A stretch of DNA of 64,000 bases, taken from NCBI GenBank assembly GCA_964507275.1, contig CAZDPG010000001.1, positions 404,577 to 468,576 of the forward strand, given 5' to 3'. The position numbers and the translations under genes are program-made. The notes beneath the pieces are model-generated. The model saw nothing but the letters and a program-made list of their open reading frames with translations. It made no database searches and was not told where the DNA came from. Positions 12,683-57,030 of this stretch are shown in pieces. Each line of letters opens with the position of its first letter. Within the stretch, counting starts at the first letter, position 1. This stretch comes from an uncultured Candidatus Saccharibacteria bacterium (lineage in GTDB: Bacteria > Patescibacteriota > Minisyncoccia > Phycocordibacterales > Phycocordibacteraceae).

Positions 12683-14062
12683 TTAGAGAAAGAGGGTCGC
12701 AACCGCGGCAATGCCTGAAATTGCCATGATGACGATAGTGACCCAGCCGATGCCGGACGCAAGCGGCCCGTTCGCATGCTCACCCATAAGCCGCTTATTC
12801 CCCGAGAGCCGGACGACGAAATACAGTATGACCGGCGCGATGATCCCATTGGCGACGGCGGCATAGATAAGCGCCTTGATGGGGTCGAGGTGCACGAAGT
12901 TCGCGGCAATGCCGAGAACCATGGAGATGATGATGACGCCATAAAACGCGTGCGCTTGCTTCAGTTTGCGGTAGAGACCGTACTTCCACCCGAAGCTCTC
13001 ACTAATCGCGTACGCGGTCGAGCCGGCGAATATTGGCACGGCGAGCAGTCCCGTTCCGACGATACCGAGAGCGAAGAGGAGGAACGCGAACTCGCCGAAC
13101 GGCTTCAGGGCAGATGCCGCCTGATCCGCCGTCGCAATGTCCGTGATGCCGTTCACATACAGCGTGCCGGCACAAGCGGCGAAGATGAAGAATGAAACGA
13201 TGTTGGAGAACGCCATGCCGCTCCACACGTCGATCCTCATGTTCTTGATCGCCTCCGGATTCACTTGCGCGCGCCGCGCGGCGATGGTCGTTTCGCCTCG
13301 CAAGATATCTTCCTCAACTTCTTGGGAGGTCTGCCAGAAGAAGAGATACGGTGAGATAGTTGTCCCGAGCACGGCGCAGATGAGGAATATCTGCTCTTTC
13401 GAGAACGAGAGTGAGGGGATGAGCGTGTGCCGCAGGACGTCAGCCCAGTCGAGATTCACTGAGAACGCGACGACGACATAGGAAAGAAGTACGAATGTCA
13501 GGTATTTGAGATATCTTGCGTACTGCGCGTACGACGTGAATATCTGGAGCACGAGACTCACGAGAGCGAAGAACACGACGAGCGAACCGAAACCGATACG
13601 CGGGAAGAGCAGCTGCGATGCGGCCGCCATCGCTCCCAGGTCAGCGGCGATGTTGAGCGTATTGGCGAAGAAAAGGAGCCCCGTCGCCACATAGAGCGCA
13701 CGCGGTGAGTAATGCTTGCGGATATTGGCTGCAAGCCCCTGGCCTGAGACCAGGCCGATGCGGGCACACATCTCCTGCACGGTTGCCATGAGCGGATAGG
13801 TGAACAGGGAAAGCCAAATAAGTTGCAATCCGTACTTAGCCCCCACCTGCGAATACGTCGCAATGCCGGACGGATCGTCGTCGGCAGCCCCGGTGGTGAG
13901 CCCCGGACCGAGTGTCTTCCAGTATTCCCGAGCGCGCTTCAGAGGGAATCGGGTAACGACGATTTCTTCCTCTCGTTCTATGAAAACAACACTCTCTTCC
14001 AGCACGCGCGCGGGCGCTCCCATTGCCTGTTCGAAATCCTTGCCAAGCGCATCTTTCTTCAT
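12683..14062 (-). CDS. mntH: NRAMP-family divalent metal (Mn2+/Fe2+) transporter
   Basis: 459 aa with 11-12 TM helices and NRAMP motifs (DPSGIATYSQ...GAKYGLQLIW; MGAAS-like region). Confidence 0.85.
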   Translation of the reverse strand: MKKDALGKDFEQAMGAPARVLEESVVFIEREEEIVVTRFPLKRAREYWKTLGPGLTTGAADDDPSGIATYSQVGAKYGLQLIWLSLFTYPLMATVQEMCARIGLVSGQGLAANIRKHYSPRALYVATGLLFFANTLNIAADLGAMAAASQLLFPRIGFGSLVVFFALVSLVLQIFTSYAQYARYLKYLTFVLLSYVVVAFSVNLDWADVLRHTLIPSLSFSKEQIFLICAVLGTTISPYLFFWQTSQEVEEDILRGETTIAARRAQVNPEAIKNMRIDVWSGMAFSNIVSFFIFAACAGTLYVNGITDIATADQAASALKPFGEFAFLLFALGIVGTGLLAVPIFAGSTAYAISESFGWKYGLYRKLKQAHAFYGVIIISMVLGIAANFVHLDPIKALIYAAVANGIIAPVILYFVVRLSGNKRLMGEHANGPLASGIGWVTIVIMAISGIAAVATLFL

Positions 14063-23406: not shown

Positions 23407-23820
23407 CTAAATCATGAGAACCGCCCCGATGGTTATCAGAGCCGCCCCGAAGAGCGCCTTCCAAGAAAACTGCGTACCTAGAAATAAGAGGGAGAGGAGG
23501 AGGACAAACACGACGCTTGTCCGGTCGATGGCAGACACGCCAGGCGCCGGACCAATCTTGAGTGCAGAGAACATGGCGAGCCACGAGAGCGCGCCAGCGA
23601 TGCCAGAGAGCGTAATGAAAAGAAGCGCCCGCCCGTGCGGCAAAGATGCGAGATTAATCTTACCCAACCCTAAAGATACGACGACGAGGAATCCCGCCAT
23701 TATGACCGCCCGTACTGTCGTCGCGACGGTCGTATCAACACCCTGAAGACCGATTTTCCCGAGCACTGCCACCAGAGCAGCAAAGACTGCCCCGACGAGT
23801 GCCAGCAACATCCATGTCAT
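23407..23820 (-). CDS. EamA-like (DMT superfamily) small membrane protein
   Basis: 137 aa with 4 TM helices and an EamA-type signature. Confidence 0.55.
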   Translation of the reverse strand: MTWMLLALVGAVFAALVAVLGKIGLQGVDTTVATTVRAVIMAGFLVVVSLGLGKINLASLPHGRALLFITLSGIAGALSWLAMFSALKIGPAPGVSAIDRTSVVFVLLLSLLFLGTQFSWKALFGAALITIGAVLMI

Positions 23821-23841
23821 AGGGAAATCATACCGCGCGAA

Positions 23842-24429
23842 TTACTCCTGGCCAGGATTCGGTATGAAATGGATTGACTCAAGAAGCGGCTGGAAATCGC
23901 GTCGAATGTCGGAGTCCTTGTCCAAGAACTGTCCTGTTATGACGTAAACACTGTCTCCATGAGCAACCACGGCGTTCTCTGATGCATAGAGGCCGTCTGC
24001 TATATAGCGTATCGCATTGGCTCCACCAACCGTAGTCTCTGAAACATCGCCCGTCTTGAGGTTGATATTGCTGTACGGAATGTGTGTATCAGCCCACGTC
24101 TGCGGCCACTGCTTCTGCGGATTCTCAAAGATATATATCGCTATGACCGCAGGTCCCTCGCCGCCGACAGGCATTTCTCGCGACGCGTCCTCGGCACGGA
24201 TGAGAGTGAGTGCCTTCACGAGACCCGCTTGCGCATCTGCAGGCGCTGATTCTTCGAGCACATAGCCCTGCGGCCCAGAACGATAAGAAAACTCAATGCC
24301 AAGCTCGCTACTACTAAAGGTCGAGTACTGAGTATTTAGTCCCAGATTAATTTCTGTGACATCTGTTCGAAGCAGGACGAGCCCTGCCACGGCGAGCACT
24401 GCCACAAGGATGAGTAGCATTTTCTTCAT
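23842..24429 (-). CDS. Secreted hypothetical protein
   Basis: Signal peptide MKKMLLILVAVLAVAGLVLL. The ORF track extends to 24456. Confidence 0.5.
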   Translation of the reverse strand: MKKMLLILVAVLAVAGLVLLRTDVTEINLGLNTQYSTFSSSELGIEFSYRSGPQGYVLEESAPADAQAGLVKALTLIRAEDASREMPVGGEGPAVIAIYIFENPQKQWPQTWADTHIPYSNINLKTGDVSETTVGGANAIRYIADGLYASENAVVAHGDSVYVITGQFLDKDSDIRRDFQPLLESIHFIPNPGQE

Positions 24430-24436
24430 GTTCACA

Positions 24437-24718
24437 TCAGATCTGCGCGCCGTCACCGAGATTCACCTCAGCCTTATAACGCTCAATTACCTCAGGATGC
24501 TTGCCTTCTTTGCACTCAGCGACGAATTTCTCAGCACTCGCGCCATCGGGGAAGGTCATGTAAGAGAGAGATCCCTCGCACACCGCATTGATGTCGATCT
24601 TGCCCTGTGAAGCCGTATCGGTTTGCCTTTGTGTGGAGAGACCATAGCCTATACCCACAATAACGAGCCCTGCAAGAATAATTAAAGCTGTTTTCATAGC
24701 GGCGAGTGTTTTCCTCAT
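24437..24718 (-). CDS. Small secreted or membrane-anchored protein
   Basis: 93 aa with an N-terminal TM/signal and two Cys. Confidence 0.4.
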   Translation of the reverse strand: MRKTLAAMKTALIILAGLVIVGIGYGLSTQRQTDTASQGKIDINAVCEGSLSYMTFPDGASAEKFVAECKEGKHPEVIERYKAEVNLGDGAQI

Positions 24719-24878
24719 GATGATAATTATACGCTCCTAACCCGTCTAGGTCGCCGGGTACCAAAAACTAAGCTGCTGGCCTCCTCGGATTCGTACATTG
24801 TACCGTGAGGCACTATAAGGGTTTTCTGGCGCCTTTTTTCAGCCCCTTTCGACCCTCCTCGGAATGGCGCTTTCGTCG

Positions 24879-25421
24879 CTAAATGTTACTAACTCTATTG
24901 TGGATATACGCTGACGCCTCCTGACGGAAGGATTCAATAAATTCGTTGGGGATATTGTGTTCTCCTCGTATCGCATAAGCTCTCATATTACTCAGGTACT
25001 CCCACTCAACTATCGCCATAATGACTTGTTCGAGAGTTTTGTTTGGAAGCTGAATTAGATCAGTGTAATAACCGTCTGCACCGAGGTCTTGTGCATCGAA
25101 CTTTCTCCGAGTATCAAGAATGATATTTAGGATATCGTTTTCCGAATATGACGGAACAAACTTATTTTCAGCATTTTCTTGCCTGAATTTCTTTATATCC
25201 CCAACCGTCGCATCATTCCGGAGCCCACTTTCATTTGTGAGGCTCTCAATGTTAACAGACGGTTTTGCGGTTTTTGCCCATGCTTTAAAAGCGGAAGAAT
25301 TCTCATCCTTCAGCTTCTTATAAATCCTTATCTGGTGGCTTACTACTCCCTTATATCCAAGAAACGGCAATGCCTTTACGAGCAATCCGGCGAGAAATCC
25401 CCTAGAATTCAAAATCTGCAT
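24879..25421 (-). CDS. Hypothetical protein in the ~40% GC islet
   Basis: 180 aa with no recognisable domain. Strongly AT-shifted codon usage relative to the flanks. Confidence 0.45.
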   Translation of the reverse strand: MQILNSRGFLAGLLVKALPFLGYKGVVSHQIRIYKKLKDENSSAFKAWAKTAKPSVNIESLTNESGLRNDATVGDIKKFRQENAENKFVPSYSENDILNIILDTRRKFDAQDLGADGYYTDLIQLPNKTLEQVIMAIVEWEYLSNMRAYAIRGEHNIPNEFIESFRQEASAYIHNRVSNI

Positions 25422-25483
25422 TTCTGTATTTTATCACCTTCAAACTCCCGATGGGTCAAAGTGGCCAATCTCCTTCATGATTG

Positions 25484-26173
25484 TTACTTCATATATCCTC
25501 CTCCAGAACCCATTTGCTCTCCAAATTTATATAAGAAATTCTGTTGCGTCTCATATGTCTTCTCAGGAAAACCGGCAATGGCGGCGTTATACTTAATGGT
25601 AAGCGAACAAACCATATCTTCACCGCCCTGCAAACTTATAGATTTTACGATACTTTGGTTGATGCCTATAACATCATTTTTCGACACAAACGTCGGTGGT
25701 TCTTTAGACGGACAATCCATAGCCTGGTATAAAATTCTTGCAGGTAAATTCCCAGAATTTTTTATAAAAATCCGATAGTCTGATTTTTTAGATACTAAAT
25801 CCGTATTTCCTTCAACATTTTCAATTGTCAGGTATGGTCTCGTCCTGAGTTCGAATTCAATGCCTGCTCTTTGTGTCGCAAGCCAAGAGAAAATCATACT
25901 TGAAACAGCAACAATGGCTAAAATTCTATTTGTTAAAATTGAATTTCTTCTTTCCAAATTTATTGCTTCATTTTCTTTTTCGTAAACGTTTGATTTTTCA
26001 ATCTCCATATCCATCTCATCCTTAAAATCATCCGCTAGGCTCTTTTCGGCTCTTTCTCTCACACTGGAAAAGGCAAGTCCACGTTCAGCGAAGTTGTTTT
26101 GCATCTCTAACAAATCCCGGTCGTGCTTTCTTTTACGGAACCTTAACCAAATCTCAAGATATTTATGATTCAT
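25484..26173 (-). CDS. Hypothetical single-pass membrane protein in the low-GC islet
   Basis: Start MNHKYLEIW at 26173, only 14 nt from the tRNA-Gln 3' end. A cytoplasmic helical N-terminus, then TM ILAIVAVSSMIFSWL, then a ~130-aa external domain. Confidence 0.45.
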   Translation of the reverse strand: MNHKYLEIWLRFRKRKHDRDLLEMQNNFAERGLAFSSVRERAEKSLADDFKDEMDMEIEKSNVYEKENEAINLERRNSILTNRILAIVAVSSMIFSWLATQRAGIEFELRTRPYLTIENVEGNTDLVSKKSDYRIFIKNSGNLPARILYQAMDCPSKEPPTFVSKNDVIGINQSIVKSISLQGGEDMVCSLTIKYNAAIAGFPEKTYETQQNFLYKFGEQMGSGGGYMK

Positions 26174-26186
26174 ATTGTGATCTCTG

Positions 26187-26257
26187 CTGCGGGTCAGGGA
26201 CTCGAACCCCAATACCATCCTCCAGAGGGATGTGTCCTACCATTAGACGAACCCGCA
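26187..26257 (-). tRNA. tRNA-Gln (anticodon CTG); CCA not encoded
   Basis: TGCGGGTTCGTCTAATGGTAGGACACATCCCTCTGGAGGATGGTATTGGGGTTCGAGTCCCTGACCCGCAG. U1:A72, anticodon loop CTCTGGA, T-loop TTCGAGT, discriminator G, all as in bacterial tRNA-Gln. Confidence 0.85.
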
Positions 26258-26324
26258 AGAGCACGACACCGAAGTGCCGTGCTCCATAGAAGATACTTGA
26301 AAACGGTCCTTTATTCAACCAGCA

Positions 26325-26864
26325 CTATTGAGTCCAGAACAGGTGGTAGATAAATGAAACGAGAGGATCGGCATCCGGACCGTAGACGATAGCTGCGCCG
26401 AGTGCCCCAGTTATAGTCATACCAACGAGAGCAATGAGCGCGAGGAGGGGCAGGAACCAGGTATCAAGCACGAGGTGAGTAAAGTATCGTCTGAGACTGA
26501 GAACGCGCAGCAAGAAAGGATTCGTCCCGAAGATACGATTGCTCCACCCTCTCTGATCACAGATGCGCGTGAGGTAGGCCGCGGCAAGCACGAGATACAC
26601 GAGTGTCGTTGCAGCAGCAAAAGGTGCATGCACTTCAAGAATGAAATCATTGGGAACAAGTCCTTCGACGAGTTCCTCTGCCATACCGCCAGTGACGAGA
26701 GCCGCAAAGGCCGCGAGTACGCCAGCAAAGAGAAGGAAGGCTTTTACTGGGAATGCCCATGCCTGGCGACGTACCATGGGGAACGCATAGACGCCTAGCT
26801 CAAGGAGCGAATATACCGCGAGCAGGCCTATCGGGAAATGCACAAAGAGAGGGTGGATGTTCAT
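26325..26864 (-). CDS. DUF2231-like membrane protein
   Basis: N-terminal HPLFVHFPIGLL motif with 4-5 TM helices. Confidence 0.6.
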   Translation of the reverse strand: MNIHPLFVHFPIGLLAVYSLLELGVYAFPMVRRQAWAFPVKAFLLFAGVLAAFAALVTGGMAEELVEGLVPNDFILEVHAPFAAATTLVYLVLAAAYLTRICDQRGWSNRIFGTNPFLLRVLSLRRYFTHLVLDTWFLPLLALIALVGMTITGALGAAIVYGPDADPLVSFIYHLFWTQ

Positions 26865-26875
26865 GTTTACTATGG

Positions 26876-28534
26876 TTATCTTCGCTTCCTAGTAGCGACG
26901 GCAGCCTTCAGGAACTCCGTGAAAAGAGGGTGTGGATCGAGTGGGCGTGCCTGCAGCTCCGGATGGAATTGCGTACCCAACATGAACGGATGCACCGTGC
27001 GTGGGAGCTCGGCGATTTCCATAAGGACACCATCGGGACTCGTACCCGAGAACACTAGACCAGCATCCTGGAGCGGCTTCACGTATTCAAAATTGATCTC
27101 GTATCGGTGCCGGTGCCGCTCTTCAACAAGTTCTTTCTTGTACGCGGCGCGAGCGAGCGTTCCCTTCTTCAGGTACGCAGGATAGGCACCGAGACGCATC
27201 GTACCGCCGTACTTGTTCGCCGCGAGATGCTTCTTCTGCTCGAGCATCACGTCCACCACCGGATCCTGCGCGTTCTTCTGAATCTCGGTCGTGTGCGCAT
27301 TCTTGAGCTTGAGCACATTGCGAGCGTACTCTATGACCATGAGCTGCATGCCGTAGCAGAGACCGAAATACGGAATCTTATGCTCGCGTGCGAACTGTAT
27401 CGCTTTAATCTTCCCTTCAATGCCACTCTCGCCGAAACCGCCCGGGACGATAATGCCGTCGAAGCCGGCAAGCAGCGCCGAAGGTTTCGCACCGGCTTTC
27501 TCAAGATGCTTCGAGTTGATCCAGGTAATCTTCGGATAGCGCCCGAGCTTGGCAGCCGAGAACTTGATAGCTTCGATGACCGACAGATACGCATCGGAAA
27601 GCACGAAATCGCCCGAATCGAAATATTTCCCGACAATCGCTATGGAAACCTCAGGAGCTTTCTTATTCGCCACCGCCGTAGCGAACTTTCTCCATGCCGC
27701 GAGCGACGCCTTCCTCTTCTCAGGCAGCCTGAGCGCATCGAGGAGCGTATCACTGAACTTGTCCTTCTCGAAATTGAGAGGAGCTTCGTAGATGCTGCTG
27801 ATATCCGGAGCAGCGATGATGCGATCCTTGCGCACATTACACCAGACAGCGAGCTTCTCCTTACGCTTTTCGTCGATGGGTTCCTTGGAACGAGCCACGA
27901 TGAAGTCCGGCTGGACGCCATATGAGTTCAGGTCGCGCACGGCCGACTGAGTCGGCTTCGTCTTCATCTCGCCGAGCGTACCGGGCGTCGGTAGGTACGT
28001 GACCATAACGAACAACACGTCCTCTGGATAATTCATCTTCAAGACACGGGCGGCCTCGATGAAGAGTGCGTTCTGGAAATCGCCTATCGTGCCGCCGATC
28101 TCGATGACGGACATGCGGCTGCCATTATGCGCTGCGGCGGCCTCAATGCGATGTAATATCTCATCGCGCACGTGGGGAATCGCTTCGACGCACTTGCCGC
28201 CGTACTCAAGTGCGCGCTCACGGGCGATAACCGATTGGTACACCATACCGCTTGTCATATAGTCCTCATTCGTGAGATCGCGCCCGAGGAAGCGCTCGTA
28301 GTTCCCCATGTCCTGGTCGGTCTCGAGCCCGCTCCGGAGCACGAAGGTCTCGCCATGCTCGGTCGGATTCATCGTACCGGCATCGACATTCAGATACGGA
28401 TCGACCTTCACCAGATTCACCGGATACCCTTTCTGTTGGAGCAGGAGACCGATCGAACTCGTAACGACACCCTTCCCGACGCCGCTCATGACACCGCCCA
28501 GGACGAATATATATTTGTGACCTTGTTTTGCCAT
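26876..28534 (-). CDS. pyrG: CTP synthase
   Basis: 552 aa. N-terminal synthetase domain MAKQGHKYIFVLGGVMSGVGKG and a C-terminal GATase with GLCYGMQ. Confidence 0.92.
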   Translation of the reverse strand: MAKQGHKYIFVLGGVMSGVGKGVVTSSIGLLLQQKGYPVNLVKVDPYLNVDAGTMNPTEHGETFVLRSGLETDQDMGNYERFLGRDLTNEDYMTSGMVYQSVIARERALEYGGKCVEAIPHVRDEILHRIEAAAAHNGSRMSVIEIGGTIGDFQNALFIEAARVLKMNYPEDVLFVMVTYLPTPGTLGEMKTKPTQSAVRDLNSYGVQPDFIVARSKEPIDEKRKEKLAVWCNVRKDRIIAAPDISSIYEAPLNFEKDKFSDTLLDALRLPEKRKASLAAWRKFATAVANKKAPEVSIAIVGKYFDSGDFVLSDAYLSVIEAIKFSAAKLGRYPKITWINSKHLEKAGAKPSALLAGFDGIIVPGGFGESGIEGKIKAIQFAREHKIPYFGLCYGMQLMVIEYARNVLKLKNAHTTEIQKNAQDPVVDVMLEQKKHLAANKYGGTMRLGAYPAYLKKGTLARAAYKKELVEERHRHRYEINFEYVKPLQDAGLVFSGTSPDGVLMEIAELPRTVHPFMLGTQFHPELQARPLDPHPLFTEFLKAAVATRKRR

Positions 28535-36099: not shown

Positions 36100-36175
36100 T
36101 GGAGCCGAGAGTCGGGATTGAACCGACGACCTGCGCCTTACCATGGCGCTGCTCTACCAACTGAGCTATCTCGGC
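36100..36175 (-). tRNA. tRNA-Thr (anticodon GGT); CCA encoded
   Basis: GCCGAGATAGCTCAGTTGGTAGAGCAGCGCCATGGTAAGGCGCAGGTCGTCGGTTCAATCCCGACTCTCGGCTCCA. Confidence 0.85.
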
Positions 36176-36322
36176 GAGCGAGGAAACGTGGGAGGACACG
36201 CCTTCGTGTATTCCCACGTTCTCCGAGCGAGCCGAGACAAGCGTGCAAGCAATGCTTATATCGGCGAACTCGTATTTCCCGCACCTGTGCATACTAGCCG
36301 AGTTTCCCTATTCTTTCAATTT

Positions 36323-36652
36323 TTAATACAGCAGCACGCCGACGACTATTACGCAGTTAGAGAGTCCCATGAGGACATTTGCGAGGAATATATGCTTGTC
36401 TTTGTGCACCGCGCCATATGTGGCCCACAGCACGTTGATGAGGACGAACAAGAGCCATGACGGCAGCGATAGGCCATCGCCGTTTTTCGTCGTGTAGATC
36501 TGGAGTATCTGCGGCACGAGCGCCAGGGGCGCGAAGACACCGACGCCGTACATAAGATAGTCGAGGAAGCGCTTCGGCAAGCTTCGTGCAGGGAATGGTT
36601 CGAGTCCTTGCGTAGCGAGCGCACGCGAGCGCATGTGGTGGAGACCGAGCAT
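36323..36652 (-). CDS. SemiSWEET (PQ-loop/MtN3-like) small sugar transporter
   Basis: FAPLALVPQILQIYTTKNGDGLSLPSWLLFVL...; 3 TM helices. The true start is probably internal (MYGVG.. or MRSRA..). Confidence 0.6.
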   Translation of the reverse strand: MLGLHHMRSRALATQGLEPFPARSLPKRFLDYLMYGVGVFAPLALVPQILQIYTTKNGDGLSLPSWLLFVLINVLWATYGAVHKDKHIFLANVLMGLSNCVIVVGVLLY

Positions 36653-36682
36653 AGAGTACGGAAAGCTTGATATACTTATACC

Positions 36683-37048
36683 ATGGAAGGCCTAGCCCAG
36701 TATGAAAAAGAAGAACGCCCGTGGGGAAACTTTGAACGCTTCACCATGAATGAGAAAACGACGGTCAAACTCGTGACGGTCAACGCTGGAGAATCTATCA
36801 GCCTGCAGACCCACGATAATCGCGACGAGTTCTGGCGCATCATTAAAGGAACTGGCATCATCACTATTGACGACACTGCGCATGATGCCAAAGAAGGCGA
36901 CGCATTCTTCACCCCGCGACACTCGAAGCACCGCGTCTCTGGCGGTCCAGAGGGACTCTCCTTCCTTGAGATAGCCTTCGGTGACTTCGACGAGCACGAT
37001 ATCAAACGTCTCGAAGATCTCTACGGGCGCACAACGAAAGTCGGTTAG
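36683..37048 (+). CDS. Cupin-2 domain protein
   Basis: 121 aa; GESISLQTHDNRDEFWRIIKGTG...GDAFFTPRHSKHRV. Confidence 0.6.
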   Translation: MEGLAQYEKEERPWGNFERFTMNEKTTVKLVTVNAGESISLQTHDNRDEFWRIIKGTGIITIDDTAHDAKEGDAFFTPRHSKHRVSGGPEGLSFLEIAFGDFDEHDIKRLEDLYGRTTKVG

Positions 37049-37100
37049 CGCAGGACCCACACAAAATACAAAAGACCCGGAAAGGGTCTTTTGTATTTTG

Positions 37101-37174
37101 CGCGAGGGACGGGACTCGAACCCGCAACCTTCCGCGTGACAGGCGGATGCTCTAACCAGTTGAGCTACCCCCGC
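37101..37174 (-). tRNA. tRNA-Asp (anticodon GTC); CCA not encoded
   Basis: GCGGGGGTAGCTCAACTGGTTAGAGCATCCGCCTGTCACGCGGAAGGTTGCGGGTTCGAGTCCCGTCCCTCGCG. Confidence 0.85.
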
Positions 37175-37232
37175 AGTTTCTACCTGCGCGCACGAACGTC
37201 ATCTTACCAAACTCTCTCAGAAATGTCCTCTG

Positions 37233-37306
37233 TGCCGGTGGCAGGGATCGAACCTGCGACCTCAGCTTTATGAATGCTGTGCTCTAACCAACTGAGCTAC
37301 ACCGGC
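37233..37306 (-). tRNA. tRNA with CAT anticodon (elongator Met or Ile2/lysidine); CCA not encoded
   Basis: GCCGGTGTAGCTCAGTTGGTTAGAGCACAGCATTCATAAAGCTGAGGTCGCAGGTTCGATCCCTGCCACCGGCA. G1:C72 pairs, so it is not an initiator; there is an A31-A39 mismatch. Confidence 0.8.
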
Positions 37307-52167: not shown

Positions 52168-53667
52168 ATGCTGTCCTTCGTTGACACGTTCCTCAATAAG
52201 ATCACGATGTATCGCCTCGTGTTGCAGTACCTCATGGTCCTGCTCGGCGCTGCAGCCATTGCGAGTTTGTTCGGCCTTCTTTCATTCAGTTTCTTCGATC
52301 TCATATTCTCGACCGCAATCATCCTCGCGACATGCTGGATATCTAATGCGGTGTTCGCTCGAGGCTTTGGCGCAGCACGGAATGTCGAGTCTGCGTATAT
52401 CACCGGGTTCATCCTTGCACTCATCGTGAGTCCGGTCGCCCCTTCCGACGGCGCTGGCGTCGGGTTCCTTATCTTCGTTTCGGCATGGGCAATGGCTTCG
52501 AAATACATATTCGCCATCGGCAAGAAGCATATCTTCAATCCAGCCGCATTCGGTGTTGCGCTCGGCGCACTCATGCTCGGACAATCAGCGACCTGGTGGG
52601 TCGCAAGCAGCACGGTACTCATGCCGCTCGTCGTAATCGGCGGATTCCTCGTCGTCCATAAGATACGCCGATTCGACCTGGTAGCCGCCTTCTCGGTCGT
52701 GGCGCTCACGGCCGTCGTCGTCACATCCTCTTCTGGCGGTGCCCTGACTCATCTCGCGCAAACGGTTCTGTATTCCCCATTTTCTTTCCTTACGCTCGTG
52801 ATGCTCACCGAGCCCCTGACGATGCCGCCGAGTCGCTTCTTGCGGGTGGGATATGCAGCAATCGTCGGCGTCCTGTTTGGTTCCCTGTATCTATCGCCTG
52901 AGCTCGCGCTTCTTGTGGGGAACGTCTTCGTATATATAGTCAGTCCGAAGAGACGCTTTATCCTGACCCTAGTAGAGAAAAACAAGATTGCTGATGCCAC
53001 CTATGAATTCGTTTTCGCACCAGATCATGCACTCAGCTTCCGCCCAGGACAGTACTTAGAATGGACGCTCGGACACCCCGCTGCTGACAATCGCGGCAAT
53101 CGCCGGTTCTTCACGATCGCTTCATCACCGACCGAGAAGACCGTGCGGCTCGGAGTGAAATTCTATGCTCCCGAGAGCAGCTTCAAACAAGCGCTTCTGG
53201 CGATGCAGCCGGACGACACGATATCGGCCGCGCAGGTCGCAGGAGACTTCGTGATGCCACGCGATAAAAAGAAGAAGCTTGTCTTCATCGCTGGCGGCAT
53301 TGGTGTCACCCCCTTCCGCAGCATGGTGCAGTACCTCATCGATACTAAAGAGGAACGGGCAGTGACGCTCCTTTATTCAAACAAGACCGTGAACGAAGTC
53401 GCTTATAAGGACGTATTTGACCAAGCCGCACGAGAAATCGGCATGAAGACGGTCTATGCATTTACAGACGAACCGAATCCTGTACCGAATGCCCATAACG
53501 GATTCATTGACCGGGCACTCATCGAGAGAGAGCTTCCTGACTACAAAGATTGCGTCTTCTATATTTCCGGCCCACACGGCATGGTGGTCGCATTCAAGAA
53601 GACATTGAGCGATATGGGTGTATCCCGTTTCAACATCAAGACGGATTACTTCCCTGGTTTTGCTTAG
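52168..53667 (+). CDS. Membrane oxidoreductase: polytopic N-terminal domain fused to an FNR-type FAD/NAD(P)-binding reductase domain
   Basis: About 8 TM helices (HIFNPAAFG), then RFFTIASSP (FAD-binding RxYS-like) and GGIGVTPF (NAD-binding). The start ATG 52168 follows the upstream stop by 1 nt. Confidence 0.7.
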   Translation: MLSFVDTFLNKITMYRLVLQYLMVLLGAAAIASLFGLLSFSFFDLIFSTAIILATCWISNAVFARGFGAARNVESAYITGFILALIVSPVAPSDGAGVGFLIFVSAWAMASKYIFAIGKKHIFNPAAFGVALGALMLGQSATWWVASSTVLMPLVVIGGFLVVHKIRRFDLVAAFSVVALTAVVVTSSSGGALTHLAQTVLYSPFSFLTLVMLTEPLTMPPSRFLRVGYAAIVGVLFGSLYLSPELALLVGNVFVYIVSPKRRFILTLVEKNKIADATYEFVFAPDHALSFRPGQYLEWTLGHPAADNRGNRRFFTIASSPTEKTVRLGVKFYAPESSFKQALLAMQPDDTISAAQVAGDFVMPRDKKKKLVFIAGGIGVTPFRSMVQYLIDTKEERAVTLLYSNKTVNEVAYKDVFDQAAREIGMKTVYAFTDEPNPVPNAHNGFIDRALIERELPDYKDCVFYISGPHGMVVAFKKTLSDMGVSRFNIKTDYFPGFA

Positions 53668-53701
53668 AAATCAGCCGTCTTACCTGGTGCGTAGTCAACG
53701 C

Positions 53702-53729
53702 AAAAGCCGCTCTTTCGAGCGGCTTTTGC
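53702..53729 (+). terminator. Rho-independent terminator (bidirectional-looking)
   Basis: aaaagccgctc tttc gagcggctttt, flanked by an A-run and a T-run. Confidence 0.75.
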
Positions 53730-53762
53730 TTACGTGATGCCTGGCGGTACTGTGGCCGGTAC

Positions 53763-53806
53763 TGGTTCCTGGAGTCACAACCGTGTTGCGGGGTCCATTA
53801 TCGAAC
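53763..53806. repeat. Displaced, degenerate copy of the tRNA-Met(CAT) 3' end plus ~22-nt trailer (att-like direct repeat, copy 1; copy 2 at 56308..56350)
   Basis: tggttcctgGAGtcacaaccgtgttgcgggg-tccattatcgaac aligned with tggttcctgCGtcacaaccgtgttgcggggg-ccggaatcgaac. It contains CCCCGCAA (acceptor 3' strand plus A72 A73) and a T-arm remnant in the same orientation as the tRNA. Confidence 0.6.
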
Positions 53807-53904
53807 TGGACTTTCTACGGCCTAGATGCTCAAAGTCTTAGTTCGATTCCGGTGCCCGTCTTTCTCAATACTGAGAACCCGTGCTCATAAATTACTGCTA
53901 GAAT

Positions 53905-54327
53905 ATGATGGGAGCTTTTACTCAGACTAAATTAGGATATCTTATGGACATCACCGTATTTCTTGCTCAGATCTGGGGGCCAGTTATCATCGCAGTCGGA
54001 ATCGGCGTCTATACGAGTCGCAGTTACTACCTCAAGATCTACCATGAACTCGAGAATGAGGCGTTTGCTGTTCTTATCTTCGGTATGGTGGCTCTTGCGG
54101 CGGGTATTGTTCACATACAGGTTCATAACCTATGGGATACGCTTCCGCAGATTGTGGTGAGTCTTCTCGGTTGGGGACTTCTCCTTAAGGGAATTGTTTG
54201 CACCTCCTTCCCGCGTATTGCCGATCGCGCTGGGGACTGGTGGGTCAGTACGAAACTGATTCCTGTAGCTGGTGGTTTTATGTTCTTTCTTGGAGCATAT
54301 CTCTCTTGGTTCGGGTACTTCGCATAG
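53905..54327 (+). CDS. Hypothetical 4-TM membrane protein (islet cargo)
   Basis: 140 aa, hydrophobic. Confidence 0.45.
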   Translation: MMGAFTQTKLGYLMDITVFLAQIWGPVIIAVGIGVYTSRSYYLKIYHELENEAFAVLIFGMVALAAGIVHIQVHNLWDTLPQIVVSLLGWGLLLKGIVCTSFPRIADRAGDWWVSTKLIPVAGGFMFFLGAYLSWFGYFA

Positions 54328-54336
54328 TCTCTACTC

Positions 54337-55716
54337 GTGACGAACGGAAAGAGAACTTACGGGCTTGAAAGACGTGCATACACTACAACTCGGACGTTGC
54401 TTAGGTTATTGCGGTCTGAACCTATAAAACGCGTACCGAAGCAGTTAGCACGCAAGAAAATCAAGATCGCTTTTATTCATAACGAAAAGAAGATTCATGT
54501 CGGTGCGCATACTGGAGCCGCACAAATCAATCGGCTCATGTCTGCCGCGCTCGCAGAACATGGGATAGAGGTTCGCAACTTCTATCCACGAACACAACTC
54601 ACCGATACTCCCGTGCATTTGAAAGGTCTCGCTAATATCCTTTTCTTCTACTCCCTGCTTGAACATAAAGAGGCCATGCTCAAGTATGACATCATTCAAG
54701 GAACGACATATACTCCGCTCCCTCTTCTTTCATTCAACGTACCGACGGTATGCCACTTTGGATCAACCGCGCGAGGATACCTCGAATCTACCCCCCGCAC
54801 CTCGGACATGTCCGAAGAAGAGCGTAGTGTCTTCAAGGAAATATTGCGGCTCGCCATCATACCGGAGTTTGACCTTAAGACCATGCGTCCGATCGAGGAT
54901 ATTGCAGATATTGAAGCTATTACCGCGACACGCGCGACGGCCTGTATCGCCACATCGCAAAAAGTGCGAGACGAACTCATTCAGATAGGTGTTGCCGTCG
55001 ACCGTATTCGCGTTATTCATAACGCGATCGAAGATTATTGGTTTGACCCTCCGCGCGATGTCATTCGACAACCCCCACACTTAGTATTCCTCGGCCGGCT
55101 CGGTAATGATGTATTTACTCTCAAGCTAAAAGGACTGTCTCGGTTGGTGCAACTGTACCGAGCGTTTCCCGATACGCCTAAGACAACCGTCTGTATGACT
55201 ACGAATCGCAAACTCAAAGAGTGGTTGCGAGTCTCTTTCCCGAAGCACTATATGTACGTCAATCTTCGCAAGGACCTCATTCCGGGTGCGCTCGCGCCGC
55301 TGTACGGTAGCATCCTCCTCCTGACTTCTCGTTATGAAGGGTTCTCTCTTAGTCTTGTCGAGGGAATGTCGCAAGGACTTGTGCCGATTACGTTTTCTGT
55401 GGGGGTCGCGCCTGAAATCATCCGCCATGGAGAGAACGGATTTTTAGTATCAACGATGAGCGAAGCGATATCCTGCGTTAAGGAGCTGCTCGCTAACGAA
55501 GAGAAGCGTCTTGCTATGGCGGATGCCGCGAAGCAAACTGCTGAACAATTCCGAAGTACGCGTATCGCAATGGAACTTGAAATGCTCTACCGAAGTATTA
55601 AGGAAAATCGCATCTGCGAGAACCATTCTGCTCTTTCACCCGAATCAGAGAAAAAGAATCGCACAGACAAGAATGATGCTCGCCAGAATATTAAACACGG
55701 AAGCGATACCGAGTGA
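54337..55716 (+). CDS. GT4-family (GT-B) glycosyltransferase
   Basis: C-terminal EGFSLSLVEGMSQGLVPI (E-x7-E) motif. The N-terminal start is uncertain; the low-complexity C-terminal tail overlaps the convergent ORF by ~70 nt. Confidence 0.65.
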   Translation: MTNGKRTYGLERRAYTTTRTLLRLLRSEPIKRVPKQLARKKIKIAFIHNEKKIHVGAHTGAAQINRLMSAALAEHGIEVRNFYPRTQLTDTPVHLKGLANILFFYSLLEHKEAMLKYDIIQGTTYTPLPLLSFNVPTVCHFGSTARGYLESTPRTSDMSEEERSVFKEILRLAIIPEFDLKTMRPIEDIADIEAITATRATACIATSQKVRDELIQIGVAVDRIRVIHNAIEDYWFDPPRDVIRQPPHLVFLGRLGNDVFTLKLKGLSRLVQLYRAFPDTPKTTVCMTTNRKLKEWLRVSFPKHYMYVNLRKDLIPGALAPLYGSILLLTSRYEGFSLSLVEGMSQGLVPITFSVGVAPEIIRHGENGFLVSTMSEAISCVKELLANEEKRLAMADAAKQTAEQFRSTRIAMELEMLYRSIKENRICENHSALSPESEKKNRTDKNDARQNIKHGSDTE

Positions 55717-55953
55717 GATGAGTCCGCGGTGCAAGGCATATAAAAGCCACACGATGCTGTTCAGCAGAATCAGCAAAAAGGTCGGCAAAGAAACTCCAGC
55801 CGTTGAGCCGCTTGAGAGAACTGCCCACACTTGGGGGTACAGTGCGACACCGGACACGAAGCCGTTGAGGAGCGCAAGACGGTCGATAAAATGATGATGT
55901 AAAGTGGGCATGAACAAATAGTATAACGCAACCCTTGAAAGTCGCCTGACCAA
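55645..55953 (-). CDS. PQ-loop / SemiSWEET-like small membrane protein (islet cargo)
   Basis: LLNGFVSGVALYPQVWAVLSSGSTAGVSLPTFLLILL; 3 TM helices. Confidence 0.45.
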   Translation of the reverse strand: MVRRLSRVALYYLFMPTLHHHFIDRLALLNGFVSGVALYPQVWAVLSSGSTAGVSLPTFLLILLNSIVWLLYALHRGLISLGIASVFNILASIILVCAILFL

Positions 55954-56225
55954 ATAGCGATTATCACACTCTTGATGCCTATGAGTTAGGAGGTGCGATT
56001 TTTCTTATGCATGTATTTAAAGCATATCTCCGGTTTGAAGTTCAATACCTGCCCCCATGCACCAGGGCGGGAAGTAGGAACTGTGGTAGATGCTGGACGC
56101 CACCAGTTCGATTCCAATGCCCATGTTCAAAATCTGATGAATTTCGATGTGATTGCGACACGAAACACCGTTGAATACGAGAGTCGGAATCGAACTGGAA
56201 ATATGTTGGAAATGCTGCATGACAG

Positions 56226-56256
56226 AAAAAGCGCCTCTAGTATTTAGGCGCTTTTT
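56226..56256 (-). terminator. Bidirectional hairpin terminator 74 nt downstream of the tRNA-Met(CAT) gene
   Basis: aaaaagcgcct ctagtattt aggcgcttttt. Confidence 0.6.
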
Positions 56257-56329
56257 CTGGTGACCACGGGGGTCGGTACAGTACCGATTTTGCCATGGGG
56301 GCAGGAATGGTTCCTGCGTCACAACCGTG

Positions 56330-56400
56330 TTGCGGGGGCCGGAATCGAACCGGCGTCTGGAGGTTATGAGCCTCCCGAGGTACCTCTCCTCTACCCCGCT
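56330..56400 (-). tRNA. tRNA-Met (anticodon CAT), probably initiator type (A1·A72 mismatch, A73); CCA not encoded
   Basis: AGCGGGGTAGAGGAGAGGTACCTCGGGAGGCTCATAACCTCCAGACGCCGGTTCGATTCCGGCCCCCGCAA. It closely parallels E. coli tRNA-fMet at both ends. The short D-loop and A29:U41 are deviations. Confidence 0.75.
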
Positions 56401-56448: not shown

Positions 56449-57030
56449 CTAAATCGCACGGAATTCGCGGAAGACCGCTTCATACTGTGCGATGGTGCGA
56501 CGAGCGAGCGTATCGGAAAGGTCGAATGCCGATCCTTGGTGTGCAATCTGATTGCGTACTTTATGCGCCTCCCATGCCTCGTTCAGAGTATTGAAGTCTG
56601 ACGACTCGACGGACTTCAATTTCTCACCGACACCCTCGCCGTCATATCCCTGCTTCGTGAGCATGTCATCGAGCATGATGTCCGCTTCGATAATCGCCGA
56701 GCGCCAATCGCTCGGGTTCACACTGCGAGCGAGTTCCTCAATGTGAAGCCAGCGCGGATTCACACCTCCCACACTCTCAGGTGCGAGGAGAATCGTGCCG
56801 TAATACTCCTCCTCACGATTGCGTAGTTCAAAGAGTCGTACCGTCGAGTAGATAATGAAAACCAAAGCCAGGATGGCGAGGATGTAGCCGATGATGATAA
56901 TCCAAATCCAGACATGCGCTATCCACGCCGAGAATTCCGTCAGGTCTACCGACCCGTAGCATGAGCCATGCAGGCACTCGTAGAGGAGACGAAACCAATA
57001 TTCAACGTTGGTCTGATTGCCGGCCATCAC
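56449..57030 (-). CDS. Membrane-anchored HEPN-like protein (R-N-x3-H motif; DUF4145/Abi-like)
   Basis: TM segment WIWIIIIGYILAILALVFIIY; C-terminal EAWEAHKVRNQIAHQGS carries the classic HEPN RNxxxH motif. Confidence 0.5.
   Translation of the reverse strand: MMAGNQTNVEYWFRLLYECLHGSCYGSVDLTEFSAWIAHVWIWIIIIGYILAILALVFIIYSTVRLFELRNREEEYYGTILLAPESVGGVNPRWLHIEELARSVNPSDWRSAIIEADIMLDDMLTKQGYDGEGVGEKLKSVESSDFNTLNEAWEAHKVRNQIAHQGSAFDLSDTLARRTIAQYEAVFREFRAI

Follow-up and report, generated by a model that had tools for sequence, protein, structure and literature searches.

The 64,000-nucleotide stretch analyzed here (the window; contig CAZDPG010000001.1, positions 404,577 to 468,576) carries an intact tRNA-Met(CAT) gene whose extreme 3' end is joined to a discrete unit of 2,544 bp (53794-56337, measured junction to junction). 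We consider it somewhat more probable than the alternatives together that this unit is one non-autonomous cassette in a tRNA-Met-anchored variable region of a groundwater Parcubacteria (Paceibacteria) clade, placed there by site-specific insertion in trans. In this region a cassette starts with a head, which consists of GCAAC-ACGGTTGTGAC, two GTAC-W-GTAC palindromes and a hairpin, and it ends with a conserved tail that is either a P hairpin or an X element. The head hairpin probably supplies the tRNA, or the preceding cassette, with a terminator. Unrelated gene blocks are joined at the same point, GCAA|C.

The two ends of the unit share the 20-mer GTCACAACCGTGTTGCGGGG, which is made up of the final 9 nt of tRNA-Met(CAT) and 11 nt of its trailer and reads, in the orientation of the tRNA, CCCCGCAAC followed by ACGGTTGTGAC. 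It has exactly two sites in the 64 kb, 53774-53793 and 56318-56337; allowing up to three mismatches added none, and 100 shuffled sequences gave 0 matches. The direct repeat of the tRNA 3' end and trailer reported in a first-pass annotation of this DNA is therefore genuine. The similarity extends to 86% identity over 36 ungapped nt (53774-53809 versus 56318-56353) and to 76% over another 21 nt (53751-53771 versus 56296-56316), with about 50 similar nt overall, and the cggtacWgt similarity previously noted upstream of both copies is part of a recurring CGGTAC-W-GTACCG palindrome. The GC content of the interval (53794-56328) is 48.6%, close to the earlier figure of about 47%, against a window mean of 54.0% (standard deviation, 2.3% for equal-sized windows), which makes it the 21st lowest of 615. 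All four exact window copies of the decamer GTTCGATTCC fall within these 2.5 kb, in both orientations: one is the T-loop of the tRNA, and the others are at 53841 (+), 56106 (+), and 56186 (-). Tyrosine-integrase genomic islands in tRNA genes are recognized by an intact tRNA whose 3' end recurs in direct orientation at the opposite boundary, and the islet shows both features.

The conserved module was followed into relatives by scanning JGI metagenome contigs with GCAACACGGTTGTGRC-N3-4-GGARCCA, which matched 90 stretches and returned 80 loci. Together with three further loci (L017, L021, and L024), these gave 108 core copies and, after removal of duplicates, 91 distinct junctions. The module is laid out as GCAACACGGTTGTGAC, about 45 nt with GTAC-W-GTAC palindromes, and then a hairpin; past the search pattern it reads GGAACCAGTACCG, a variable stretch of about 14 nt, CAGTAC(A/T)GTACCG, and a hairpin of type Ia, Ib, II, or III. 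Type I modules extend for about 100 nt more and contain an inverted pair of GGAATCGAAC. The window copy (56039-56337) is 75 to 88% identical to those of more than 25 loci, many of them not adjacent to a tRNA. L024 (GatA 73%) has the same trailer, a hairpin, and the same inverted GGAATCGAAC pair behind its tRNA, and in L021 (GatA 77%) four core copies follow an intron-bearing tRNA, with single genes between the last three. The nearest GTDB species representative has a GatA 77% identical to that of the window. Heads and tails are 87 to 97% identical at the nucleotide level between genomes, compared to 77 to 82% amino acid identity for GatA.

The gene order around the module is LigA-GatC-GatA-P192-tRNA-Met, then 0.3 to 10 kb of variable DNA, and then, on the other strand, (OxRed-FMNb)-2Hacid-enolase-PPDK. 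All copies within every locus have a single orientation, and 22 loci have two to four copies between P192 and 2Hacid, so that several elements with partial tRNA or att-like copies between them occupy a conserved island position, as in a tandem array. Contigs of 56 to 199 kb have the module in one region only. From this distribution, the module appears to be confined to one locus and not to be a dispersed repeat. The first-pass annotation had held that membership in a widespread repeat family would speak against insertion at the tRNA. There is indeed a family, with 91 junctions in 80 loci, but its confinement to one locus and one orientation argues for recombination rather than against it. The variable DNA contains 259 open reading frames (ORFs) of at least 140 amino acids (aa) in 192 clusters, and the cargo of the hotspot includes restriction-modification (R-M) systems, Shedu, reverse transcriptases, Fic, P-type ATPases, Ham1, and an S8 peptidase.

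By upstream partner, the 91 junctions comprise 34 with the tRNA, 18 with a P element, 14 with an X element, and 25 with other DNA (two smaller classes and unique sequences). At 15 of the 34 tRNA junctions the tRNA is recognizable by its 3' half alone, consistent with an intron in the anticodon loop. The left edge of the module is sharp at GCAA|C, with the upstream partners diverging immediately 5' of GCAAC. By its sequence, GCAA corresponds to the end of the acceptor strand together with the discriminator. The junction lies one base past the discriminator, and the tRNA remains intact with any partner. The X element is a conserved segment of about 170 nt that ends in GGGTACAGTACCGACACGG. In three loci (L102, L107, and L149) it ends in GCAAC and is then followed by unrelated DNA, so the break falls at the same bases on both sides. 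The P element is an imperfect hairpin with a 3' arm that imitates the tRNA-Met T-arm and acceptor. The distal copy in the window is such an element, 97% identical to that of L162 over 77 nt and 92% identical to that of L144 over 104 nt. The differences in the distal T-arm had been taken as decay, which does not hold: this is a conserved P tail with 89 to 97% identity to other genomes and not a decayed resident T-arm. Considered as a candidate structured RNA or single-stranded DNA site, P has a weak consensus fold (-6.5 kcal/mol) and little covariation, with a compensatory change in 2 of 14 pairs. Among P-class units, the order tRNA plus type I, P plus type I, and finally P plus type II is found in the window, L123, L160, L132, and L117, and is the product expected from stacking circular P|GCAAC|type I head units into tRNA|GCAAC|type II trailer. 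X-class units break this rule (L021 and L129).

Under the reading that we favor, a circular cassette with the sequence tail|GCAAC|head (attP-like) would recombine with tRNA|GCAAC|trailer (attB-like) by means of a site-specific recombinase supplied in trans. Repeated events would stack cassettes and leave P|type II trailer as the outermost junction, as in the window, and homologous exchange between the conserved modules could then shuffle and delete cassettes. More tentatively, and with clearly less confidence than in the insertion itself, the locus may represent a previously undescribed cassette-capture platform of the candidate phyla radiation (CPR), in which cassettes of one to a few genes, with a head of about 300 nt and a hairpin or X tail of 70 to 170 nt, would be inserted by a trans-acting recombinase one base beyond the discriminator of the initiator tRNA-Met gene, giving integron-like arrays of defense, transport, and envelope genes that differ between near-identical strains.

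Near-identical strains bear on the position of the edges. Exact-protein look-ups with OxRed, P192, and 2Hacid found contigs 100% identical to the window, except L017, L199, and L200 (the latter two 97.5 to 97.9%), and the islet GT4 glycosyltransferase protein occurs with the same neighbors on ENA contig ERZ909573 k127_29331 (360 kb) and in several other assemblies, whose contigs match the window with 100% identity in the parts that overlap it. L017 belongs to another assembly and matches the window with 100.0% identity over 3,735 nt, from LigA through the tRNA to ...GTTGTGACGC, and then continues into a type II trailer, not a type Ia head; a site that is empty or occupied by something else would be expected to look like this. 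It was rejected as an exact empty site, since its trailer differs from the distal trailer of the window by a 15-nt indel and several substitutions; the contig stops 55 nt past the point of divergence. In L153 and L172, which are 99.85% identical across LigA-P192, the entire segment containing tRNA-Met and cassette lies in opposite orientations. The cargo of L153 is a small R-M cassette, and that of L172 and L169 is a serine-recombinase/ParB-methylase block.

The features of the islet and its flanks are as follows, with the strand in brackets where one applies:
52168-53667 (+): flanking gene OxRed, membrane FAD/NAD oxidoreductase (Pfam)
53697-53773 (-): type II trailer, with a 15-nt deletion compared with relatives
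53700-53729: perfect 13-bp hairpin in the type II trailer, which also ends the convergent OxRed gene
53774-53793 (-): distal core copy, exact 20-mer
53794-53863 (-): cassette tail of class P, imperfect hairpin GGGCACCGGAATCGAACT ... AGTTCGATAATGGACCCC (sequence comparison)
53905-54327 (+): hydrophobic protein of 140 aa, directly upstream of the GT4 gene (ORF; no family match)
54337-55716 (+): GT4 glycosyltransferase, called as 435 to 459 aa (Pfam)
55645-55953 (-): PQ-loop/SemiSWEET-like membrane protein, 88 to 102 aa (Pfam)
56039-56328 (-): cassette head module, type Ia (sequence comparison)
56103-56130 and 56171-56198: part of the head, inverted pair of T-arm-like GGAATCGAAC
56223-56259 (-): part of the head, perfect 14-bp hairpin
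56260-56328 (-): part of the head, trailer with CAGGAACCATTCCTG and CGGTACTGTACCG
56318-56337 (-): proximal core copy, CCCCGCAAC (tRNA end) and ACGGTTGTGAC (trailer), with the junction point GCAA|C at 56329-56333
56329-56400 (-): tRNA-Met(CAT), intact, no encoded CCA (ARAGORN; Rfam RF00005, 58.9 bits)
56449-57027 (-): flanking gene P192, conserved 192-aa protein that precedes tRNA-Met throughout the clade

The tRNA is probably initiator-like because of an A1.A72 mismatch, read from the sequence. An Rfam scan at an E value of ≤1 over 50 to 60 kb matched the tRNA as the sole family. A consensus terminator scan missed both perfect hairpins, which have their T-runs inside the stems, and the hairpin calls rest on the perfect inverted repeats. 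An ORF of 84 aa that overlies the head module (55993-56247) looks conserved at the protein level in about 40 homologous copies but was rejected as a small gene: about one-quarter of them contain frameshifts or in-frame stop codons, which places the conservation at the nucleotide level, and the 3' end of the ORF is the terminator hairpin. Type IV pilus and competence-like genes are located about 4 kb away on the same contig. Relatives have a group I intron in the anticodon loop of tRNA-Met (in L021 at 13416-13618, within 13393-13690; RF00028, 58.6 bits), and ARAGORN misses such genes. More distant Parcubacteria (L023, L029, L030, and L033) have the order GatA-X-tRNA-Met-tRNA-Met-tRNA-Asp-tRNA-Thr; in the window, the Met-Asp-Thr tRNA cluster (36100-37306) is 19 kb from the tRNA-Met at 56329-56400, with glycolysis genes between them.

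A Pfam scan of the ORFs matched the gene content described previously, namely a GT4 glycosyltransferase, a PQ-loop protein, and a membrane protein. The glycosyltransferase has both its N- and C-domains, Glyco_transf_4 (PF13439; 38.6 bits, cutoff 28.5, E value 1.4e-9) and Glycos_transf_1 (PF00534; 52.1 bits, cutoff 26.4, E value 7.5e-14), and the PQ-loop protein matches PF04193 (28.3 bits, cutoff 22, E value 1.5e-6), with MtN3_slv at 21.4 bits, below its cutoff of 23.7. The 140-aa hydrophobic protein has no Pfam family match; a partial homologue is found upstream of the glycosyltransferase gene in L194. The last 35 or so codons of the GT4 gene are antisense to the PQ-loop gene and lie beyond the point where homologous glycosyltransferase genes stop aligning, the nucleotide similarity to those of L191, L194, and L195 ceasing near 55593-55610. 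Within the islet interior, the PQ-loop gene provides the sole nucleotide homology to other arrays. In L173 a homologue with 80% identity is positioned identically behind a type Ia head, with a P-type ATPase gene and a P tail next, and L195 has a head followed by an inverted glycosyltransferase gene, an ATPase gene, and a P tail. The cassette in the window is itself a mosaic, in which the head and PQ-loop gene match an ATPase-type cassette and the GT4 and 140-aa pair is inverted inside it.

The best 120 clusters of GT4 homologues, from Paceibacteria and Nomurabacteria, all have 63 to 100% identity. In L191 the glycosyltransferase gene adjoins the head beside tRNA-Met, flanked on the opposite side by PQ-loop and ATPase genes, and a second core is absent within 17 kb; in L192 it is found between rpoBC and trmD, and in L193 elsewhere again, both housekeeping contexts. 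The first-pass annotation would have given up the insertion if relatives carried the same cargo without the repeat and at backbone GC, and these three loci go part of the way towards that for the GT4 gene. They leave no support for its proposal that the cargo remodels surface glycans, for example as a phage-receptor modification, which is speculation since the gene is conserved and occurs in other contexts elsewhere.

Pfam scans of all islet ORFs found no recombinase domain, in agreement with the earlier statement that no integrase is present. Tyrosine recombinases were absent both from the Pfam results for the hotspot ORFs and from a motif scan that covered the window and about 0.7 Mb of hotspot loci. 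IMG/VR viral contigs lacked the core, so no phage attP was found. The commonest hotspot protein in relatives is a large serine recombinase of about 445 aa with Resolvase, Recombinase, and zinc-ribbon domains (L105, L115, L123, L140, L143, L148, L155, and L169). It always follows a type II trailer, often behind ParB-methylase and helix-turn-helix genes, and no replication genes were seen in the nine loci that have it. The ninth, L167, has a 5'-truncated gene abutting an X junction, which was rejected as a split gene and is a pseudogene. Nothing conserved that resembles an att site was found after the stop codon of the recombinase gene. A conserved 5' region of about 110 nt contains GCAAC and was rejected as a site, since the similarity extends 24 nt beyond that motif. 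We regard this protein as no more than a candidate for the enzyme. The family is very widespread and well conserved in the CPR, all 8,000 candidates scoring at an E value of ≤1e-20 and the best 120 having 61 to 92% identity, and it is often found beside defense genes such as Shedu, R-M systems, and reverse transcriptase-trypsin fusions.

A number of observations weigh against site-specific insertion in trans. Neither the islet nor the 64-kb window contains a recombinase by Pfam on the islet ORFs and by motif scan; in particular, the window has no copy of the serine recombinase, and none of its 120 best homologues was assigned to the source contigs of the window. In relatives that enzyme is encoded at a variable distance from the site, without an att-like sequence beside it. 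Integration by serine recombinases is not expected to leave direct repeats of 20 to 60 nt, and a long head and tail with repeated motifs are more like a complex attP than like a serine-recombinase site; with 20 exact and about 50 similar nucleotides shared by its ends, the unit does not have the form of a large-serine-recombinase element, in which the recombinase gene lies at one end and attL and attR share just the 2-bp crossover. No precise empty site was found in the relatives compared (L017 and L199). L199 has 97.9% identity to the window between enolase and OxRed, and beyond the OxRed stop codon (53667) its DNA is unrelated, so the variable region runs from the tRNA 3' end to 53668 and includes the distal repeat. 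Divergence between L153 and L172 sets in about 82 nt beyond the start of the core, after the trailer and not at the core, which indicates that homologous exchange within modules also operates. The GT4 gene, with conservation no lower than that of GatA, is a conserved lineage gene and not typical accessory cargo. Finally, the loci were retrieved with the core pattern, and conservation of the first 27 nt or so is therefore built into the sample.

Several of these points would also fit a process without any dedicated recombinase, in which the duplicated trailer/terminator module of tRNA-Met serves as portable homology for homologous recombination (e.g., after DNA uptake) together with illegitimate events. 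This is a serious rival that we nevertheless hold to be rather unlikely. The modules are long (60 to 300 nt) and 75 to 97% identical between genomes, which is enough for exchange; the window lacks a recombinase; type IV pilus and competence-like genes are located about 4 kb away on the contig; L153 and L172 part after the trailer and differ by inversion of a whole segment; and the cassette is a mosaic, the order of glycosyltransferase and PQ-loop genes differing among the window, L191, L195, and L173. However, homologous recombination leaves unexplained why many unrelated left partners end exactly at GCAAC, why X tails with GCAAC are followed by unrelated right partners, why all copies share a single orientation, and why the P tails conserve a mimic of the T-arm and acceptor. 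Less probable still is the first-pass version of events, a once-autonomous tyrosine-integrase island in the tRNA gene that lost its integrase and left a displaced 3' fragment as a decaying scar. The direct repeat of the 3' end of an intact tRNA and the low GC content agree with it, as do the roughly 370 nt of tail and head with GGAATCGAAC and GTAC-W-GTAC motifs repeated in both arms. Heterobivalent tyrosine integrases use arm-type sites in a complex attP, which the tail and head resemble. On the other hand, no tyrosine recombinase was detected by motif in the window and the 0.7 Mb of loci or by the Pfam scans, the distal copy is conserved P-type sequence, the junction is located after the discriminator base and not within the tRNA, and the 2.2 kb of conserved-gene cargo contains no trace of an integrase pseudogene. 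What stands of that earlier account is the site-specific origin, still the best reading of a discrete unit joined at the very end of an intact tRNA-Met, while its decayed scar is disfavored.

It is similarly improbable that the module is a functional cis-element, such as a signal for tRNA 3' processing, a terminator, or a regulatory site bound by a protein, that was recruited after several genes, and that the islet is ordinary chromosome. Each module does have a strong hairpin positioned as a terminator for the tRNA or for the gene upstream, the palindromes would fit a dimeric DNA-binding protein, the GT4 gene inside is a conserved lineage gene, and the module sequence is more conserved than housekeeping proteins. 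Yet Rfam gives the tRNA only, the covariation in the P hairpin is slight (2/14 pairs), and the palindrome flips between GTACAGTAC and GTACTGTAC, pointing to DNA symmetry rather than RNA structure. Moreover, the P tail in the window follows genes of the opposite orientation and so cannot be their 3' signal, and the module is confined to one hypervariable locus at which strains differ.

Among known systems, the closest parallel to a trans-inserted cassette array is, by analogy, that of tycheposon-type tRNA-linked islands. The tycheposons of Prochlorococcus lie in tRNA-linked islands as elements in tandem, divided by partial copies of the tRNA and accompanied by degenerate remnants; in a minority of them the recombinase is of the large serine type (Hackl et al., bioRxiv 10.1101/2020.12.28.424599). 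The shared traits are a variable island at a fixed tRNA-adjacent place in a streamlined genome, successive elements split by partial tRNA copies, degenerate remnants without an integrase, and a cargo of defense and transport genes. Unlike in tycheposons, neither an integrase nor a replication module was observed alongside the P and X cassettes, the repeat consists mostly of trailer with its junction after the discriminator base, the cassettes are 1 to 4 kb with a long conserved head and tail, and the host belongs to the CPR. Classical tyrosine-integrase islands in tRNA and tmRNA genes (Islander definition, PMC4383910) likewise pair an intact tRNA with a displaced direct copy of its 3' end at the opposite boundary, whereas here an integrase is lacking, the crossover lies outside the tRNA body, and the distal fragment is conserved element sequence.

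Integron arrays resemble the locus in their small one-to-few-gene cassettes, single orientation, fixed platform, and imperfect hairpin beside the crossover. It is nevertheless not an integron: there is no IntI next to the platform, and the core is GCAAC, without GTTRRRY/RYYYAAC. Its sites are conserved in sequence, whereas attC is conserved in structure only, and a terminator hairpin is present in every module and genes run in both directions. As in cis-mobilizable elements (CIMEs), integrative mobilizable elements (IMEs), and Xer-dependent integrative mobile elements (IMEX), att-flanked cargo without its own recombinase is found in tandem at one site, but here a helper element or recombinase has not been tied to the site. 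In contrast to IMEX, which integrate at the chromosomal dif site through host XerCD, the site does not appear dif-like, and no GC-skew turn occurs at the locus in the window.

Two other observations concern the rest of the window. Its lowest-GC stretch (23500-27000; about 45%) adjoins the 3' end of tRNA-Gln(ctg) (26186-26257, -), and two hypothetical ORFs, 24879-25421 (-) and 25484-26218 (-), lie in it. A tRNA-derived direct repeat was looked for in this stretch and not found; it may be a second tRNA-linked islet. ARAGORN also predicted a tmRNA at 1513-1918 with an unusual 25-residue tag, AKNTLASVKSPYFGMKDFTFAFATA.

In conclusion, the islet should be viewed as one cell of a larger array system and not as a phage-receptor island. 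Gene gain and exchange in the CPR (Patescibacteria), which have tiny genomes and few recognized mobile elements, are poorly understood, and this locus offers a defined junction, GCAA|C, searchable att-like modules, and a candidate recombinase family that is widespread in the CPR. Gene flow in these uncultured bacteria is thereby testable through read-level counts of junctions and simple plasmid recombination assays, and the tRNA-Met hotspot is a predictable place to seek defense systems in their genomes.

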